A stretch of DNA of 64,000 nt from Gemmatimonadota bacterium (GCA_036475815.1 JAZGAL010000012.1:1969-65968); one strand, 5' to 3'. Counted from the stretch's first letter, positions 6,209 to 25,886 are shown. Translations and numbers: made by a program. The notes: a model not told the origin generated them from the sequence alone.

Positions 6209-6332
6209 GGCCCCAATTTAGCATGTAGATCCAATTTACGAAGAGGTTAGACCTCGGCTTGACGCTGTCCCTGGCAGCCGCCTATGATCGCTTCCGGGTT
6301 AAAGTTGGCTCGACTGTCTTACCAGAGGGTTC

Positions 6333-7058
6333 ATGAAGAAAGCGATCGTCATCGGGTCCAGCACGGGCATCGGCCGGGCTCTCGCGAAGGTGTTGGCTGG
6401 GAATGGCTATGAGGTGGGTCTGGCGGGCCGGCGGACCGAGCTGATGGAAGAGCTGAGCGGCGAGATCGCCACTCGAACCTACATCCAGGCTCTCGATCTC
6501 GCCCGGCCGGAAGACGCGAGGCGGGCGCTGAGACGGCTGATCGACGAGATGGGCGATGTGGATCTCATCGTCATCAACTCGGGGGTCGGCTCCTCTGATC
6601 CCACTTGGGAGGAGGAGCTTCAGATCATCGCCGTGAACGTGACGGGCTTCGCGGCTATGGCCAATCTGGCCATGGAGTATTTCGTGGGGCGAGGATCGGG
6701 CCACATCGTCGGCATCTCGTCGATCTCAGCGCTGCGAGGGGTGACGACGAGCTACAGCGGCTCGAAGGCCTTCGACTCGACCTACCTGGAAGGACTGCAG
6801 TTCAAGGCGGACCGGCTGGGCTTGGACATTCGGGTCACCGACGTGAAGCCCGGCTTTGTGGACACACCCATGACCGAAGGCCGCGAGGACATGTTCTGGG
6901 TGGCACCCGTTGATAAGGTGGCCCGGCAGATCTACGATGCGATCCGCAAGCGGAGGCGGCACGTCTACGTCACTAAACGGTGGCGGTTGATGGGATGGTT
7001 GATGAAGCTGCTCCCCTATCGGGCCGCGTCCTGGCTGCAGGGCCGGAGACGTGGCTAG
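6333..7058 (+). CDS. Short-chain dehydrogenase/reductase (SDR) family oxidoreductase
   Basis: MKKAIVIGSSTGIGRALA (TGxxxGIG NAD(P)-binding motif), NSGV, and YSGSKAF (YxxxK catalytic motif). Confidence 0.85.
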   Translation: MKKAIVIGSSTGIGRALAKVLAGNGYEVGLAGRRTELMEELSGEIATRTYIQALDLARPEDARRALRRLIDEMGDVDLIVINSGVGSSDPTWEEELQIIAVNVTGFAAMANLAMEYFVGRGSGHIVGISSISALRGVTTSYSGSKAFDSTYLEGLQFKADRLGLDIRVTDVKPGFVDTPMTEGREDMFWVAPVDKVARQIYDAIRKRRRHVYVTKRWRLMGWLMKLLPYRAASWLQGRRRG

Positions 7059-18432: not shown

Positions 18433-19533
18433 TTGTCCAGCTTCGGCAGTTACTTTCTCCCGGGACCGACCGAGGTCAGGCCTGAAGTCCTGGGTGCGAT
18501 GGTACGGCCGGTCATCGGTCACCGTGGCCGGGAGATGGAAGAGTTGATGGAGCGCGTCGCGCCACGGTTACGGCATCTGTTCCGCACCCAGCGGCCGGTG
18601 TATGTGTCGACTTCGTCTGCCACGGGTCTGATGGAAGCGGCTATCCGCAACTGTGTGAGTCTGCGGGTCCTGTCGCTGGTGTGCGGCGCCTTCAGCGAGC
18701 GCTTCTACAGGATCGCCCGGGCCTGCGGTCGAGAAGCGGACCGCCTCGATGTCGAGCTTGGCGAGTCCAACGAACCGGGTCGGTTGGTGGACGCGCTTGC
18801 GCGTAGAGAGTACGATGCGGTCACGGTCGTTCACTCCGAGACCTCGACGGGGGTGCTCAACCCACTGCGAGAAATCGCCGCGGCCGTGCGCGAGGTATCG
18901 CCGGACACTCTGGTCCTTGTGGACTGCGTGACCTCTCTGGCAGCAGCGCCGGTTGAGGTCGATGCCTGGCGGCTCGACTTCGCCCTCACCGGTTCGCAGA
19001 AGGGCATGGCGCTGCCGCCGGGCCTCGCCTTCGGGGTTGCCTCACAGCGTGCCTACGATCGATCGCTGGGGGTCGCGGACCGGGGGCTCTACTTCAGCTT
19101 TGAGGCGTTCGAGGCGGCGGTCGCGGGCAACCAGACGTCGAATACGCCTGCCGTATCGCTGCTGTATGCGCTCGATGCCCAGCTCGAGCGGATCGAGGCG
19201 GAGGGATTGGAAGCGCGCTGGGCCCGGCATCGGGCCATGGCGGAGCGCACCTGGCGATGGGTCGACGAAATGCGCGCGCGCCACGGCGTCGACCTGCAGG
19301 TGCTTGCGGCGGAAGACCGACGTTCGCCTTCGGTGACTTGCGTCGTTCTGCCGGATGAGCTGAACGGTGTCGAGATCACACGTCGCATGGCGGAGCTCGG
19401 ATACACTATCGCGTCGGGCTACGGGAGGCTCAAGGAAAAGAGCTTTCGCATCGGCCATATGGGTGATCATACTATGGGTGAACTGGAGGGGCTTCTCGAG
19501 GTCCTTGCTTCCGTGATAGTAGATAAACGCTAA
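18433..19533 (+). CDS. Class V pyridoxal-phosphate aminotransferase (serine-pyruvate/phosphoserine aminotransferase-like)
   Basis: TTG start. FLPGPTEV, VHSETSTGV, TGSQKGMALPPGLAF (PLP-lysine motif). Immediately upstream of the SerA-like dehydrogenase. Confidence 0.8.
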   Translation: MSSFGSYFLPGPTEVRPEVLGAMVRPVIGHRGREMEELMERVAPRLRHLFRTQRPVYVSTSSATGLMEAAIRNCVSLRVLSLVCGAFSERFYRIARACGREADRLDVELGESNEPGRLVDALARREYDAVTVVHSETSTGVLNPLREIAAAVREVSPDTLVLVDCVTSLAAAPVEVDAWRLDFALTGSQKGMALPPGLAFGVASQRAYDRSLGVADRGLYFSFEAFEAAVAGNQTSNTPAVSLLYALDAQLERIEAEGLEARWARHRAMAERTWRWVDEMRARHGVDLQVLAAEDRRSPSVTCVVLPDELNGVEITRRMAELGYTIASGYGRLKEKSFRIGHMGDHTMGELEGLLEVLASVIVDKR

Positions 19534-19542
19534 GAAACGGAG

Positions 19543-20511
19543 ATGGTCGTGTCAGAATACAGCTTCCGCGTGGTGCTGGCTGATGAGATCGCGCCCGAAG
19601 GCGTTCGGCTACTCGAGCAGACCGAACGTCTGCAGGTCGACGACCGGGCGGGGATCAGCGCTCCCGAGCTCGTGTCGGTCATCGGCGGTTACGATGCTCT
19701 GATAGTGCGTAGCCGGACGAAGGTCACTGCCGAAATCCTCGAGGCTGGCGACCGCCTCAAGGTTGTGGGCAGAGCGGGAGTCGGAGTCGACAACATCGAC
19801 GTCGATGCCGCGCGCCGGCGTGGAATCCGGGTGCTGAACGCGCAAAGTGGTAACGTGATCTCTGCGGCGGAGCACACGCTCGCTCTCATGCTGGCCCTTG
19901 TCCGCCACATACCCCAGGCCGACGCGTCTCTCAGAAGGGGGGAGTGGGAGCGCAGCCGCTTCAGAGGGATCGAACTGCACGGCAAGACCCTGGGTCTGCT
20001 GGGCGCGGGGCGTATCGGTTCCGAGGTGGCCCGGCGCGCCGCGGCGTTCGGAATGCAGGTAGTGGTGTATGATCCCTATCTATCTGTGGAGCGTGCCAGG
20101 GAGGTGGGTGCGGAGCTGACGACGCTGGCTGATCTGCTCGAGCGGGCTGATCTGATCACGGTTCACGTTCCGCTCACCGACGAAACGCGCGGGCTCATCG
20201 GCGCTGAAGCGATCGCCGCGATGAAGCCCACAGCCTACCTGATCAACGCTGCCCGGGGCGGTGTAGTGGACGAGATGGCGCTGGCGGCGGCGCTCGAGAG
20301 CGGAAAGCTGGCGGGCGCGGCCCTGGATGTGTTCGAAGAGGAGCCGGTGCGGGCGGACCATCCCTTGTTGAGTCTCGAGAACGTGGTCGCGGTGCCGCAC
20401 CTCGGCGCCGCGACGAAGGAAGCGCAGGCGAACTCGGGACTCGAGATCTGCAAGGCCGTACGGGACGCGCTGATCGCCAGTGATACTCGCTCCGCCGTGA
20501 ACGTGTCGTAA
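19543..20511 (+). CDS. serA: D-3-phosphoglycerate dehydrogenase-like D-2-hydroxyacid dehydrogenase (short form, no ACT domain)
   Basis: GLLGAGRIGSEVARRA (NAD motif), TVHVPLT, NAARGGVVDE, PHLGA. 322 aa. Confidence 0.8.
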   Translation: MVVSEYSFRVVLADEIAPEGVRLLEQTERLQVDDRAGISAPELVSVIGGYDALIVRSRTKVTAEILEAGDRLKVVGRAGVGVDNIDVDAARRRGIRVLNAQSGNVISAAEHTLALMLALVRHIPQADASLRRGEWERSRFRGIELHGKTLGLLGAGRIGSEVARRAAAFGMQVVVYDPYLSVERAREVGAELTTLADLLERADLITVHVPLTDETRGLIGAEAIAAMKPTAYLINAARGGVVDEMALAAALESGKLAGAALDVFEEEPVRADHPLLSLENVVAVPHLGAATKEAQANSGLEICKAVRDALIASDTRSAVNVS

Positions 20512-22899: not shown

Positions 22900-24357
22900 T
22901 TAGTACTTGGGCATGGATGGGTCGACTTCGTCCGACCAGGCCAGGAGGCCGCCCGTCAGGTTGTATGCCCGTCGGAACCCTGCTTCCTGCAACAGCCGTA
23001 CGGCGCGCGCGCTTCGCGCGCCACTCCTGCAAAGCACGACGATATCCTCGGTGCTGTCCAGCCCGTTCATCTGGCCGGGTAATGACGCCAACGGGATCAG
23101 TTCCGCCGTTTCAAGGTTGCAGATGTTCCACTCGTGCGGTTCTCTCACGTCGATGATTCGAATCGGATCACCAGCATCGAGACGAGCTTTCAGATCGGTG
23201 GCCGTGATAGTGGGCACCTGTCCCTGAAGACCCTGCTGTTCCAGCGCCGCCTCGGTCACCCCGCAGAACGCTTCGTAGTCGATCAACTCGTGGATGGTGG
23301 GATTCTCCCCGCAGATCGGGCAATCCGGATCCTTGCGCAGGCGTAACTCACGGAACTTCATGCGTAGGGAATCGAAGAGAAGCAGGCGACCGATGAGCGG
23401 CTCACCCTGACCGAGTATCAACTTGACCGTCTCGTTGGCCTGCATGGTGCCGACTATGCCGGGCAATACGCCGAGAACACCCCCCTCGGCGCACGAGGGA
23501 ACGAGGCCTGGCGGTGGCGGCTCACGGAACAGGCAGCGGTAACACGGCCCCTCACGGGCATAGAAGACCGATACCTGGCCTTCGAACCTGAAGATTGAGC
23601 CGTAGACGTTCGGCTTCCCTAGAAGCACGCAGGCATCGTTCACGAGGTATCGCGTTGGAAAGTTATCTGTCCCGTCCACGATAATGTCGTAGTCTTTCAG
23701 TATCTCCATGGCGTTGTCGGACAGGAGCCGAACCTCATGCCTCTCGACGGTGATCTCCGGGTTTATGTCGAGCAGGCGCTCGCGCGCTGAAGCCAGCTTG
23801 GAGCGCCCGACATCCCCGGTGCCGTGGATGATCTGACGTTGGAGATTGCTGTAGTCGACGACATCGAAGTCCACCAGCCCGATCGTTCCGACACCGGCCG
23901 CCGCCAGGTATAGCGATGCGGGCGAGCCTAGGCCTCCGGCGCCGATGAGGAGAACGCGGGCTTGCTTGAGCTTCTTCTGCCCCTCGAGGCCCACCTCGGG
24001 CATGATGATGTGGCGGGCGTAGCGCCGGATTTCGTCGCGGCTCAGTTCCACTTGATCCGCCCCCAAGACCGTTGCGGCACCGCCGGCGATGGACGGGACG
24101 ATTCTGATCTCGTCGCCGTCTCCCACGCCGGTCTCCTCCCCGTCTTCAAGGTAGCGGATATCCTCGTCGTTAAGATAGATGTTGACGAAGCTGCGCAGAC
24201 TCCCGTCTTCCGTGTAGAGGTGCCGCCTGAGCGCCGAGTGGCGACTTGTCAGCTGGCCAAGCGCTTGCGCCACGGTGCCCGCCTCGACCTCTATCTTATC
24301 CCGCCCCTCGGTGTACTGCCTGAGGGGCGTAGGTACTATGACTGAGATGGTCTTCAT
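22900..24357 (-). CDS. moeZ: Fusion protein: CysO/MoaD-like ubiquitin-fold sulfur carrier + MoeZ/MoeB-type adenylyltransferase (E1) + rhodanese
   Basis: One uninterrupted 485-aa ORF. aa 1-93 ...FVNIYLNDEDIRY...GDEIRIVPSIAGG. Then RYARHIIMPEVGLEGQKKLKQARVLLIGAGGLGSP, NLQRQIIH, CYRC/CPIC zinc motifs. C-terminal rhodanese with CRSGARS. Confidence 0.9.
   Translation of the reverse strand: MKTISVIVPTPLRQYTEGRDKIEVEAGTVAQALGQLTSRHSALRRHLYTEDGSLRSFVNIYLNDEDIRYLEDGEETGVGDGDEIRIVPSIAGGAATVLGADQVELSRDEIRRYARHIIMPEVGLEGQKKLKQARVLLIGAGGLGSPASLYLAAAGVGTIGLVDFDVVDYSNLQRQIIHGTGDVGRSKLASARERLLDINPEITVERHEVRLLSDNAMEILKDYDIIVDGTDNFPTRYLVNDACVLLGKPNVYGSIFRFEGQVSVFYAREGPCYRCLFREPPPPGLVPSCAEGGVLGVLPGIVGTMQANETVKLILGQGEPLIGRLLLFDSLRMKFRELRLRKDPDCPICGENPTIHELIDYEAFCGVTEAALEQQGLQGQVPTITATDLKARLDAGDPIRIIDVREPHEWNICNLETAELIPLASLPGQMNGLDSTEDIVVLCRSGARSARAVRLLQEAGFRRAYNLTGGLLAWSDEVDPSMPKY
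22903..23211 (-). other. Rhodanese domain of the fusion protein
   Basis: IIDVREPHEWNICNLETAELIPL...IVVLCRSGARSARAVRLLQEAGFRRAYNLTGGLLAW, with active-site Cys in CRSGARS. Confidence 0.85.
24079..24357 (-). other. CysO/MoaD/ThiS-like beta-grasp domain ending in Gly92-Gly93 (internal to the fusion ORF)
   Basis: Codons GCC GGC GGT (A91 G92 G93) read directly at 24087-24079, followed in frame by GCC GCA ACG (AAT...). Closely resembles, from memory, M. tuberculosis CysO (FVNIYVNDEDVRF...ILPAVAGG). Confidence 0.8.
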
Positions 24358-24848
24358 CTGTCTTGCGTCCCTATTGTCGCTCGATTCTCATCCCCCACCA
24401 ACAGCGATATGAAACCCCGTCGATCGTCAGCCAGTCGCCAGGCCTCGGCACGGGCCATACGCCCGTTCTCGACGCTGACGATCAGATAGATATACCAGGG
24501 CCAGGCATGCTCCCGGTCGAAGGCCGAGGGCACGGGCGCAGCGTCCGGGTGAGAGTGGTAGTATCCAACAACCTGGACGTTCGCCGCCTCGGCCCGGCGC
24601 TCGAGTTCCACAACGGCACCTGGCCCGATCAAATAGCGCCGGCGACGCTCCTCCTCTCGAGCGTTCGCGAGCGATACGGCGTCCGCGACCTCGATGGCGC
24701 GCTCGTCCCGCACCAGGCCCAGCAGGCCGCCACAAGCTTCCTCTGGATAAGCGCCTTCCACGTGCGCCCGAATCTTCGCCAGGATGTGTCGGCTCAGGAT
24801 CAGGTTTATTCTCCTCTCGGCAACTTCCCGTGAGCGCTCTTCTTTCAT
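24354..24848 (-). CDS. mec: JAB1/MPN/Mov34 (JAMM) metallopeptidase, Mec+-like
   Basis: EEACGGLLG and YYHSHPDAAPVPSAFD (E...HxHx7Sx2D JAMM motif). Stop overlaps the fusion-gene start (ATGA). Confidence 0.85.
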   Translation of the reverse strand: MKEERSREVAERRINLILSRHILAKIRAHVEGAYPEEACGGLLGLVRDERAIEVADAVSLANAREEERRRRYLIGPGAVVELERRAEAANVQVVGYYHSHPDAAPVPSAFDREHAWPWYIYLIVSVENGRMARAEAWRLADDRRGFISLLVGDENRATIGTQDR

Positions 24849-24870
24849 TTCATTTCATTTCATCGTCTGC

Positions 24871-25830
24871 CTACCACAGTCCCAGGCTCGAATAGCGCAT
24901 CCCGCTGTCGGGGAAAATGGCTACGACGCGTCCTTCGCTAAGTTCCGCCGCGATGGTTCGGGCGACGAACGCCGCGGCACCCGATGACGGGCCTACCAAC
25001 AGTCCGAGCTCACGCGCCAGGTGTCGCGTCATGTCGTAGGCATCCTCCGTCCGCACCCGCTGCGTGCGAGTTGGGATGGCCGGGTCGTAGAGACCGGGAA
25101 CGATAGAGGTAGGCAGGTGCTTGAGCCCTTCGATCCCGTGAAACCCGTCGTCCGGCTCGACGGCGATGAGCTGAACGCCGGGGTTGCGCTCCTTCAGGTA
25201 GCGTCCGGTGCCCATCAAAGTTCCGGTTGTGCCCAATCCGCAGACCAGGTGAGTGATCCTGCCTCGCGTCTGCCACCAGATCTCCGGGCCGGTCGTCTCG
25301 TAGTGGGCCCGCGCGTTGGCCGGATTGCTGTACTGGTCGGCGTAGAAATATCGATCCGATCTCTCGCCGGCTAGCTGCCGAGCGCGCAAGATGGCACCGT
25401 CCGAGCCCTCCAGAGGGTCCGTCTCGAAAACCTCAGCCCCGTAGGCGTGGAGCAGCGCCTTACGCTCCTCGCCGGCGTTCGCCGGTAGGCAGATTGTTAC
25501 GCCGAACCCGCGCGCAGCGCCCAACATGGCGTAGGCGATGGCGGTGTTGCCGGAGCTGGCGTCCAGCAGGCGCCTAACCGGAAGCTCGCCCGCCAGCTCG
25601 GCATCGAGGACGATGGCGCGGGCGGCCCGGTCCTTTACGGAACCTCCCGGGTTCAGCCACTCGGCCTTTGCCAGTACGCCGATTCGGGGAGGGAGCCCGG
25701 GCAGCGGCAGCGGAACGAGCGGGGTTCCGCCGATCAGCTCTGTAATCCCCTGCGGCGACCTGTCACCAATTTTCCTATGCAGGCGGGCTTCCGGCGACCG
25801 CCTCAGGCCTGACTGACTTACGGCTACCAT
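24871..25830 (-). CDS. cysM: Cysteine synthase, CysM type (PLP-dependent)
   Basis: NPGGSVKDRAA (PLP lysine), SSGNTAIAYA, GLGTTGTLMGTGRYL, SSGAA. The ATG at 25869 lies inside the loop of the upstream hairpin, so the ATG at 25830 is preferred. The start remains ambiguous. Confidence 0.9.
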   Translation of the reverse strand: MVAVSQSGLRRSPEARLHRKIGDRSPQGITELIGGTPLVPLPLPGLPPRIGVLAKAEWLNPGGSVKDRAARAIVLDAELAGELPVRRLLDASSGNTAIAYAMLGAARGFGVTICLPANAGEERKALLHAYGAEVFETDPLEGSDGAILRARQLAGERSDRYFYADQYSNPANARAHYETTGPEIWWQTRGRITHLVCGLGTTGTLMGTGRYLKERNPGVQLIAVEPDDGFHGIEGLKHLPTSIVPGLYDPAIPTRTQRVRTEDAYDMTRHLARELGLLVGPSSGAAAFVARTIAAELSEGRVVAIFPDSGMRYSSLGLW

Positions 25831-25841
25831 GATCGTATCGA

Positions 25842-25886
25842 TAGAAAATGAAAAGCCGGCCGTGACCATCTGGGCCGCGGCCGGCT
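25842..25886 (-). terminator. Intrinsic-terminator-like hairpin between the poly-Cys uORF and cysM (candidate attenuator)
   Basis: Minus-strand RNA AGCCGGCCG-(15 nt)-CGGCCGGCU gives a perfect 9-bp GC stem (plus coordinates 25878-25886 / 25854-25862), followed by UUUUCAUUUUCU. Confidence 0.55.

Follow-up and report, generated by a model that had tools for sequence, protein, structure and literature searches.

A CysO-type sulfur carrier encoded as the N-terminus of its own MoeZ-type activating enzyme, beside a JAMM peptidase that probably releases it, in Gemmatimonadota and Acidobacteriota

How can a ubiquitin-fold sulfur carrier that depends on a free C-terminal Gly-Gly function when it is encoded as the N-terminus of the enzyme that activates it? 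The question is raised by a gene in a 64,000-nucleotide stretch of DNA from a Gemmatimonadota bacterium (GCA_036475815.1, JAZGAL010000012.1:1969-65968; the whole stretch is referred to as the window), in which a CysO-type carrier, an E1-type adenylation domain and a rhodanese domain are joined in a single polypeptide. The gene is the last of a three-gene cluster lying entirely on the minus strand, in which a CysM-like gene comes first and a JAMM peptidase gene second. E1-type enzymes adenylate a free C-terminal carboxylate, and in Mycobacterium tuberculosis MoeZR thiocarboxylates CysO, CysM forms CysO-Cys and Mec+ hydrolyses CysO-Cys (PMC3227635). From sequence conservation and from analogy with such systems, it is likely that the 485-residue precursor is cut after Gly-Gly by the adjacent JAMM enzyme and then enters a CysO-type thiocarboxylate cycle. 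The features concerned are as follows.

22900..24357, minus strand: whole fusion open reading frame (ORF), 485 amino acids (aa); identical at NCBI to protein P0001, annotated 'MoeB', from a Gemmatimonadota metagenome-assembled genome; mean predicted local distance difference test score (pLDDT) of the AlphaFold2 (AF2) model 86.5.
24079..24357, minus strand: CysO-type ubiquitin-fold sulfur-carrier domain, residues 1-93, ending in IVPSIAGG (ThiS 6-93; matches to CysO structures).
24079..24084, minus strand: Gly92-Gly93 codons GGC GGT, with the predicted scissile bond Gly93/Ala94 (sequence and GG conservation).
24049..24078, minus strand: linker or predicted pro-sequence, residues 94-103 (AATVLGADQV), hypervariable, with indels and low pLDDT.
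23308..24048, minus strand: E1-type adenylation domain (MoeB/ThiF/MoeZ), residues ~104-350 (ThiF 113-347, 8.6e-85).
22930..23205, minus strand: rhodanese domain, residues 385-476, active-site loop C443-RSGARS (Rhodanese 9.9e-17; aligns to the Uba4 rhodanese domain).
24354..24848, minus strand: JAMM/MPN+ (Prok-JAB) zinc metallopeptidase, 164 aa (Prok-JAB 1.7e-22).
24354..24357, minus strand: ATGA overlap of the JAMM stop codon and the fusion start codon (GAC AGA TGA / ATG AAG ACC), translational coupling.
24871..25869, minus strand: CysM-like cysteine synthase dependent on pyridoxal phosphate (PLP), 332 aa (PALP 1.1e-65, residues 42-321; GGSVKDR motif, Schiff-base Lys).

An earlier reading of this DNA (the first-pass annotation) had described one uninterrupted 485-aa ORF, beginning with a CysO/MoaD-like region of 93 residues and running on through a ThiF/MoeB domain into a rhodanese domain, with a JAMM gene overlapping its start by ATGA and a CysM gene before that. 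All of these claims were confirmed. The ORF list gives a single uninterrupted frame at 22900..24357 (minus strand) with the domain order carrier, linker, E1, rhodanese; Pfam places ThiS (residues 6-93, 5.2e-11), ThiF (113-347, 8.6e-85) and Rhodanese (385-476, 9.9e-17) in the one polypeptide; and the translation contains every motif that had been quoted (FVNIYLNDEDIRY, IVPSIAGG, LLIGAGGLGSP, CYRC, CPIC and CRSGARS). The Gly-Gly codons were found at 24084-24079, reading straight on, as had been stated, into GCC GCA ACG (AATVLG) and the downstream sequence AATVLGADQVELSRDEIRRYARH, and the ATGA overlap and the position of CysM agree with the sequence and the ORF coordinates. The Gly-Gly is internal in the primary product, at residues 92-93 of 485 with 392 residues after it. 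An AF2 model of the fusion, based on a 111-sequence alignment, contains three confident domains.

Judged by its sequence, the carrier domain is genuinely homologous to CysO. It aligns end to end with the crystallised free-standing CysO proteins of Amycolatopsis (4N6E_B, 4e-17) and M. tuberculosis (3DWG_C, 6e-15), its Gly-Gly coincides exactly with their C-termini, and among solved structures CysO proteins are its best matches, ahead of MoaD and SAMP1. MoaD models of NCBIfam also match, below their curated cutoffs, and the NCBIfam SAMP1 model gives 52 bits, likewise under its cutoff. Residues 3-88 of the AF2 model have a beta-grasp-like E/H pattern.

The E1-rhodanese part is, on the evidence of its residues, an active enzyme. 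It has the N-terminal Arg helix (R112/R115), the GAGGLGSP motif, D228, a Zn site formed by C272/C275 and C346/C349, and the crossover-loop C289. In 111 sequences G139/G141/G142/G144, R112, R115, D228, C272/C275, C346/C349 and C289 are invariant, as are C443, G446 and R448 of the rhodanese domain. Since these catalytic residues are all invariant, the enzyme part appears intact and would need a substrate with a free carboxylate. Among solved structures it matches Uba4 (1.8e-67), MoeB (2.9e-61) and also ThiF, and superposition of its AF2 model on MoeB and on ThiF gives template modelling (TM) scores of 0.93-0.95. The sequence places it clearly in the MoeZ/MoeB family, without an exact equivalog call: the NCBIfam equivalog cutoff for MoeZ (NF005902) was not reached (529.8 bits vs 647), MoeB model NF005646 also stayed below its cutoff (542.7 bits vs 633), the UbaA model matched sub-cutoff, and only NF006444 (MoeB, PRK08762) passed its curated cutoff (488 bits vs 449).

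Conservation of the fusion next to a JAB gene had been set beforehand as a test, and was found. Related loci were collected at one genome per species using a query composed of the ubiquitin-like (Ubl) domain, the linker and the E1 N-terminus, and the best 80 of more than 600 matches, together with three further loci and the window (84 in all), were analysed by ORF calling and phmmer over stretches of 12-13 kb per locus. An uninterrupted carrier-E1-rhodanese ORF is present at 62 of these loci, separate carrier and E1-rhodanese ORFs at 16, and six are incomplete at contig ends; the fused state is therefore found at 62 of 78 informative species-level loci, closed chromosomes included, in a sample that is biased toward sequences resembling the fused query. 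Among the 120 best protein clusters (63-83% identity; NCBI, JGI, ENA and Logan), 118 are close to full length and show the same set of three Pfam domains, and one is without the ThiS domain, so that the architecture recurs in more than 110 clusters. The database entries include hundreds of fusion proteins, annotated 'MoeB' or 'adenylyltransferase/sulfurtransferase'. A second CysO-like ORF was found neither in the window nor within 6 kb of any fused gene.

Most hosts belong to the Acidobacteriota (Vicinamibacteria, Blastocatellia, Pyrinomonadaceae, Chloracidobacterium, Bryobacterales, Thermoanaerobaculia and Terriglobia) and Gemmatimonadota, with a few bins labelled Chloroflexota, Armatimonadota, Eisenbacteria, Verrucomicrobiia or Rubrobacteraceae. 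Six further bins (L007, L009, L017, L022, L038 and L080) are labelled Clostridia, Thermoplasmata (an archaeon), Bifidobacteriaceae, Cyanobacteriota, Acetobacteraceae and Heliomicrobium; their genes group with Acidobacteriota sequences on a neighbour-joining tree of the E1-rhodanese part, and the labels probably reflect mis-binning rather than lateral transfer.

At the junction between carrier and enzyme, five positions are fixed or nearly so in the 120 homologs (P88 in 119/120, S89, A91 and G92 in 120/120 each, G93 in 119/120), residues 94-102 are hypervariable and contain indels, and conservation returns at the E1 N-terminal helix (L105, E109, R112, Y113, R115 and H116). The carrier in the window ends in EIRIVPSIAGG, and across the 62 fused loci the motif is always P(S/A)(I/V)AGG, with AGG in every one. 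The linker, measurable in 58 of the 62, is 4-37 residues long (median ~10) and rich in Ala, Pro, Ser and Thr, and the P1' residue is Ser, Ala, Thr or Val in 57 of 62. The pLDDT is below 50 for residues 89-101, with a mean of 31 in a ten-residue block, and the linker is predicted to be exposed, disordered and unconstrained. An invariant Gly-Gly followed by a hypervariable spacer points to a functional Ubl C-terminus and a spacer that is then discarded, rather than to a fixed interdomain interface.

The JAMM protein encoded upstream has its catalytic Glu (E37) in EEACG, followed by HSHPDAAPVPSAFD, an exact HxHx7SxxD motif (H98, H100, S108 and D111). Its closest solved structure is the Salinibacter ruber MPN protein 2KCQ (1.7e-23), with PfJAMM1 more distant (4e-7), and the NCBIfam desampylase model gives 80 bits, under its cutoff. 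The motif is intact in 71 of the 72 JAB genes that neighbour sampled loci, and a JAMM gene with an intact motif lies directly upstream, often overlapping the fusion gene, in about 58 of the 62 fused loci. When counted within ~200 nucleotides (nt) upstream of the carrier gene, a JAB gene is present in about 58/62 fused and 11/16 split loci, and most related loci have a JAMM/carrier-gene junction comparable to that in the window, with an overlap or a gap of no more than 200 nt. The loci with a JAB gene upstream of the fusion include L021 and L048. The commonest third partner is a CysM-like gene, found within 1 kb upstream in 49/62 fused and 11/16 split loci.

Gene order (CysM-JAB-carrier-E1) is retained at the 16 split loci, and in each of them the separate carrier also extends past the Gly-Gly, by 1 to ~27 residues; the tails include GG-R, GG-D, GG-AA, GG-APN, GG-VAVVR, GG-LRGENIGD, GG-CCPCGCCCCPR and GG-SSCCR. 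Because all 16 split carriers are tailed, C-terminal processing appears to be the rule in this subfamily. With the Ubl domain alone as query, 1,241 proteins were found at E<=1e-10 among 1.84 billion representatives. Among the 124 best of these matches with a recognisable motif, 5 end at GG, 61 have tails of up to 30 residues, 19 continue into an E1, and the remaining 39 have tails of more than 30 residues without an E1 motif. Two tailed representatives, P0121 (GG-CCCCCCL) and P0145 (GG-ACACYCPCRMNA), lie in a JAB-carrier-E1/rhodanese context, in which JAB is preceded by a PALP gene in the case of P0145 and, in that of P0121, by a 328-aa gene that has no annotation. From these sequences, carriers of the CysO-like subfamily are usually made as precursors, of which the E1 fusion is the extreme and commonest case. 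The statement that the carrier is always a precursor was considered and rejected as too strong, as five of the 124 representatives stop exactly at GG (the context of one, P0211, was examined).

On the tree, fused genes occur in all deep clades; split genes are found mostly in Terriglobia, where two fused genes are nested between them, and another three split genes stand singly within fused clades. This interleaving of states implies, as far as the sequences go, at least 4 fusion or fission events. Some split loci (L034, L065 and L025) are set apart from the fusion by nothing more than an in-frame stop within the linker, and there one base change would interconvert the two forms; such easy interconversion is expected if everything after the Gly-Gly is removed post-translationally. 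The carrier and E1 ORFs share one reading frame at every one of the 16 split loci, where the spacer between them measures 18-180 nt, always divisible by three, and in several cases holds two or three stops. The same-frame pattern was dropped as a sign of recent fission or readthrough, given that tblastn ranking with a query spanning the junction favours genes in the same frame, and it is most likely an ascertainment bias; among examples from the frame-unbiased Ubl-only search, the next gene shares the frame of the carrier for P0145 but not for P0121 or P0211.

The proposal of the first-pass annotation that the carrier is freed after Gly93 by the adjacent JAMM enzyme is supported by the invariant Gly-Gly, the hypervariable linker, the JAMM linkage in about 58 of 62 fused loci and the tails on 16 of 16 split carriers. 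As E1 enzymes need a free C-terminal carboxylate, the fused carrier would be non-functional until the Gly93-Ala94 bond is cut. In the proposed cycle, the JAMM enzyme would hydrolyse this bond in the exposed, disordered linker, yielding a CysO-type carrier of 93 residues whose Gly-Gly carboxylate is free, and a MoeZ-type enzyme of 392 residues. Once freed, the E1 domain would adenylate the carrier C-terminus, and a persulfide carried by rhodanese Cys443, perhaps by way of Cys289 in the crossover loop, would turn the adenylate into a thiocarboxylate. The CysM-like PLP enzyme would take this thiocarboxylate as its sulfide donor, with O-phosphoserine or O-acetylserine as the presumed acceptor substrate, and an S-to-N shift would give carrier-Cys. 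The JAMM enzyme would then hydrolyse Gly93-X a second time, X now being Cys, so that cysteine is released and the carrier recycled. Release of Cys and trimming after Gly-Gly are the same Gly93-X hydrolysis, and the JAMM enzyme of the pathway would therefore already possess the specificity that is needed; the dual role that had been suggested for it, in maturation and in CysO-Cys hydrolysis, fits for this reason. A 1:1 stoichiometry of carrier and E1, also suggested earlier, is a reasonable consequence of the fusion, whose benefits may lie in equimolar synthesis, co-localisation, or an E1 that is blocked or pre-loaded until processing.

Several points weigh against this account. The cleavage of the carrier and the identity of the protease are matters that we infer from conservation and precedent. 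Adjacency of a JAMM gene would be expected in any case for the release of Cys, so that linkage alone is no proof of a role in maturation. In one locus (L074) the JAB gene lies 1.8 kb from the fusion, and neither a JAB nor a CysM gene was found within the 3.9 kb examined upstream of the fusion at L070 or within 6 kb on either side of the fusion at L081. The majority held by the fused form is drawn from the biased sample described above, and many of the 39 long-tailed representatives are probably contig-end fragments or frameshifted and were left out of the evidence. As for the pathway, the CysM-like enzyme is closer to E. coli CysM (2V03, 1.1e-61) than to M. tuberculosis CysM (3DWG_A/3DKI_A, 5.6e-48) among solved structures, and it does not reach the TIGR01138 cysM cutoff (308 bits vs 394); the M. 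tuberculosis-type route is thus drawn here by analogy, a CysM of the M. tuberculosis type not being established. Four fused loci have a JAB gene and no adjacent CysM, and these, one of which (L001) has an isc neighbourhood, suggest that the carrier may serve other acceptors.

Alternatives were weighed against these observations. That the fusion is an assembly or sequencing artefact, joining separate cysO and moeZ genes through a lost stop or a frameshift, might be entertained because the split versions at L034, L065 and L025 differ only by their in-frame stop; its recurrence in the more than 110 clusters of 63-83% identity from NCBI, JGI, ENA and Logan and in 62 independent species-level genomes excludes a lost stop or frameshift, and this explanation can hardly be credited. 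The post-GG cut could instead be made by another protease, such as a housekeeping peptidase, with the JAMM enzyme only releasing Cys as Mec+ does. The fusions at L070 and L081 without a nearby JAB gene would fit such an arrangement, the Cys-release role by itself explains the linkage, and cleavage of M. tuberculosis MoaX has been inferred, with a responsible system that is not identified and is absent from E. coli (PMC3227635). We regard another protease as improbable all the same, given the JAMM gene adjacent in about 58 of 62 fused loci and often overlapping the fusion start, the identity of the bond hydrolysed in precursor trimming and product release, the ability of related JAMM enzymes to cleave linear carrier fusions (PMC8832034), and the possibility that the genomes of L070 and L081 hold a JAB gene elsewhere. 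It appears equally doubtful that the Ubl domain is never released and acts as a tethered regulatory or structural module gating the Ubl site of the E1, with a separate free carrier encoded elsewhere in the genome. Precedent for this comes from Ubl-ThiF operons that also encode a solo ThiS, for which a different role of the fused Ubl was inferred (PMC1779556). Yet a regulatory domain would not need PSIAGG, and this motif never varies; both position and sequence mark the domain as an ortholog of the separate carriers of the split operons; neither the window nor any fused locus yielded a solo ThiS- or CysO-like ORF; the linker is predicted to be disordered and varies without constraint; and no thiamine genes were found in the window neighbourhood.

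A further alternative concerns the output of the pathway and is compatible with JAMM-dependent release of the carrier: the product may not be, or not only be, cysteine made from O-phosphoserine as in M. tuberculosis, and the carrier could serve an O-acetylserine-type CysM, homocysteine or methionine synthesis, Fe-S clusters, tRNA, the molybdenum cofactor, or protein conjugation reversed by the JAMM enzyme. In addition to the closer match to E. coli CysM and the four fused loci without an adjacent CysM, this would be in keeping with the gene of the MetY/cystathionine synthase family (Cys_Met_Meta_PP) inserted at L016 and L019, with the positions of L001 beside Rrf2-IscS-IscU-IscA genes, L070 beside MnmA and L081 beside a class-V aminotransferase, with sub-cutoff matches of the NCBIfam SAMP1, UbaA and desampylase models to all three components, and with the use of mycobacterial MoeZR by CysO and MoaD alike (PMC3227635). 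Weighing on the other side are CysM as the commonest third partner (49/62 fused and 11/16 split loci), the best structure matches of the carrier, which are to CysO and not to MoaD, SAMP or ThiS, and the lack of any E2/E3-like or tRNA-thiolation (TtuA/NcsA) gene in the window cluster. A broader or different output is possible, although cysteine remains the more probable product.

A more far-reaching extension of carrier release by the JAMM enzyme would treat the fusion as a zymogen-like control, in which the tethered carrier docks on its own E1 and blocks or pre-loads it, the JAMM cut is a regulated committing step that turns on sulfur assimilation by the thiocarboxylate route, the subfamily embodies a 'Ubl polyprotein plus JAMM' logic antecedent to ubiquitin-precursor processing, and the released carrier is perhaps conjugated in the manner of TtuB, SAMP or Urm1. 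The variant forms in the carrier subfamily comprise E1 fusion, di-Ubl, Ubl-TusA, Ubl-rhodanese and Cys-rich tails. This extension is speculative and, taken as a whole, rather unlikely.

The CysO pathway of M. tuberculosis is reportedly the subject of studies by Burns in 2005 and O'Leary in 2008. Its genes are Rv1334-1336 and Rv3206c (Voss 2011; PMC3227635). The same four functions (CysO, MoeZR, CysM and Mec+) are represented in the window, and carrier, JAMM and CysM genes are clustered in both. The M. tuberculosis CysO, however, is a separate protein of 93 aa that ends at GG, and its moeZ is unlinked, whereas the carrier here is the N-terminus of the E1; the gene order is CysM-JAMM-carrier::E1 here and mec-cysO-cysM there; and the fused carrier, unlike M. 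tuberculosis CysO, would need a maturation cut before its first turnover. Operons of the same class were catalogued in 2006 (Iyer, Burroughs and Aravind; Table 1, rows 4c/4d), combining ThiS/MoaD, E1-rhodanese, JAB and cysteine synthase in organisms that include Solibacter usitatus (Acidobacteria), Salinibacter ruber, Chloroflexus and Rubrobacter, and JAB cleavage of ThiS/MoaD fused to other proteins was predicted there in general (PMC1779556). The JAMM enzyme of the window is closest to the S. ruber structure 2KCQ, from one of those organisms, but the text of that paper describes operons of three or four separate genes and mentions neither a carrier-E1-rhodanese polypeptide nor post-GG tails.

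Maturation of carriers by JAMM/MPN+ enzymes has precedents: QbsD trims GG-CF from QbsE, CxnF has been put forward as the enzyme that trims CxnE (GG plus 10 residues) (PMC5925218), and DR0402 and HvJAMM1 cut linear MoaD-MoaE and SAMP1-MoaE fusions, exposing the C-terminal Gly (PMC8832034). The carrier here resembles QbsE, CxnE, MoaD-MoaE and MoaX in being made with residues after GG, with a JAMM/MPN+ enzyme encoded in the cluster that would expose the Gly (the corresponding enzymes in those systems are QbsD, CxnF, DR0402 and HvJAMM1). It differs from MoaD-MoaE, in which the partner is the downstream acceptor enzyme, in that the partner is the activating E1 itself, and from the JAMM-matured precursors in that the same JAMM enzyme would also be expected to act in every turnover of the pathway. 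A beta-grasp Ubl domain N-terminal to an E1-like enzyme is likewise found in the Campylobacter-type Ubl-ThiF fusions, whose Ubl is described as distinct from ThiS and which co-occur with a solo ThiS and thiamine genes (PMC1779556), and in the Ubl-E1-TBP fusions of Thaumarchaeota and bacteria (PMC2948915). Unlike the Campylobacter type, the present fusion has a CysO domain with an invariant Gly-Gly, JAMM and CysM neighbours, and no solo carrier nearby; with no other Ubl ORF found in the window or the fused loci, it does not belong to that group. A Caldiarchaeum ubiquitin precursor is processed by Rpn11, a JAMM enzyme (PMC6043591), and as in ubiquitin precursors (polyubiquitin, ubiquitin-ribosomal protein) an N-terminal Ubl would here be released by a cut after GG, and di-Ubl relatives exist; in contrast to those precursors, this is a sulfur-carrier system with no E2/E3 in the cluster.

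The first-pass annotation had also supposed that the triple fusion was undescribed. Full-text literature searches gave no description of a CysO-MoeZ-rhodanese polypeptide or of the post-GG tails of this subfamily, although Burroughs et al. 2009 (E1-like superfamily) might mention it; to that extent the supposition holds, while cleavage by JAB had been predicted in 2006 (PMC1779556) and processing by JAMM enzymes is experimentally known (PMC8832034, PMC5925218). The parts, the chemistry, the principle of JAMM maturation and the operon class are already known. What is new is that the carrier is joined to its own E1, that this form dominates among the Acidobacteriota and Gemmatimonadota sampled, and that carriers across the subfamily are habitually made as precursors.

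Should the cleavage prove real, an activating enzyme would be made in one chain with its own substrate and would rely on a dedicated JAMM enzyme to start, which would be the clearest counterpart of ubiquitin-precursor processing among bacterial sulfur carriers, with the JAMM enzyme performing two chemically identical jobs, carrier maturation and product release, in one pathway. The fusion is the majority form in the sampled loci of Acidobacteriota and Gemmatimonadota, which rank among the most abundant phyla in soil, and the protein-thiocarboxylate route to cysteine, so far described chiefly in mycobacteria, may be one of the main ways in which sulfur is assimilated in soil. The annotation 'MoeB' hides the carrier from current annotations and pathway reconstructions. 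Frequent fusion and fission, together with varied post-GG extensions, offer a tractable natural experiment on the co-evolution of Ubl precursors and their peptidases.

Further extensions after the Gly-Gly were observed in this subfamily. Cys-rich tails follow it directly at L040 (5547-5582), L075 (2471-2488), L068 (about 6277-6360), L057 and L079 and in representatives P0121, P0129, P0131, P0145, P0156, P0163, P0185, P0240, P0242 and P0269; they include CCPCGCCCCPR, CCCCCCL, CCPPAACCCR, ACACYCPCRMNA, CCR and a single C, and could act as mimics of the carrier-Cys product, metal ligands, persulfide relays or cysteine sensors. Three representatives (P0133, P0223 and P0230) are di-Ubl, or polyubiquitin-like. 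Other N-terminal carrier fusions after GG are Ubl-TusA (P0178), Ubl-rhodanese without an E1 (P0255), Ubl-DSP-like (P0209), Ubl-glyoxalase (P0189) and P0136. The domains of the di-Ubl and alternative-partner fusions are confirmed by Pfam, each fusion being a single metagenomic representative and possibly a chimera. The Thermus thermophilus 'MoaD related protein' of PDB entry 1V8C (168 aa) has GG at residue 87 followed by an extra domain of ~80 residues, and so offers a solved post-GG-extended carrier for comparison.

The sulfur-metabolism neighbours of the fusion vary among loci. At L001 (5530-9956) the JAB gene and the fusion, without an adjacent CysM, are followed by Rrf2 (IscR-like), class-V aminotransferase (IscS-like), NifU_N and Fe-S_biosyn (IscA-like) genes, a context that links the fusion to Fe-S clusters and persulfide supply. 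The Cys_Met_Meta_PP gene of L016 (3775-5061) and L019 (4436-5575), both from Pyrinomonadaceae/Acidobacteria, lies between CysM and JAB, which suggests, by analogy with the Wolinella HcyS system, that the carrier in these loci may also feed homocysteine or methionine synthesis. The fusion at L070 (5337-6560, minus strand) adjoins a gene for an MnmA-type tRNA 2-thiouridylase, and that at L081 (4583-5890, minus strand) the class-V aminotransferase gene; no other fused locus lacks both JAB and CysM in the DNA examined. One long ORF each at L031 (168-1460) and L046 (3170-4798) matches both the CysM and the JAB queries; these may be CysM-JAB fusions, or could be an artefact of calling ORFs from the first start across overlapping genes. 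In the window, the true start of the CysM-like gene may be an internal Met.

The cluster is flanked in the window by housekeeping genes, those for Rpe and an aminotransferase on one side and those for GDPD, peptidase S58, a 2-hydroxyacid dehydrogenase and a class-V aminotransferase on the other, an arrangement syntenic with that of L003, a relative with 77% identity. An Rfam scan of the whole window gave no match, and hence no riboswitch or leader RNA for the operon; no terminator-like sites were found for it, and promoter-like sites were at background level only. The class-V aminotransferase gene and a D-2-hydroxyacid (SerA-like) dehydrogenase gene lie ~3 kb from the operon, at 18433-20511 (plus strand) in the window and at 10538-12579 in L003; they could supply phosphoserine, or may reflect plain synteny of close relatives. 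One further feature was recorded in the spacer between CysM and JAMM.

24843..24863, no strand: perfect (ATGAA/TTTCA) x4.2 pentanucleotide tandem repeat (Tandem Repeats Finder: period 5, 4.2 copies, 100% match).

This (ATGAA) repeat straddles the start of the JAMM gene and gives three out-of-frame or abortive 'ATG AAA TGA' mini-ORFs followed by the real ATG; it is possibly a slippage or translational-coupling element.

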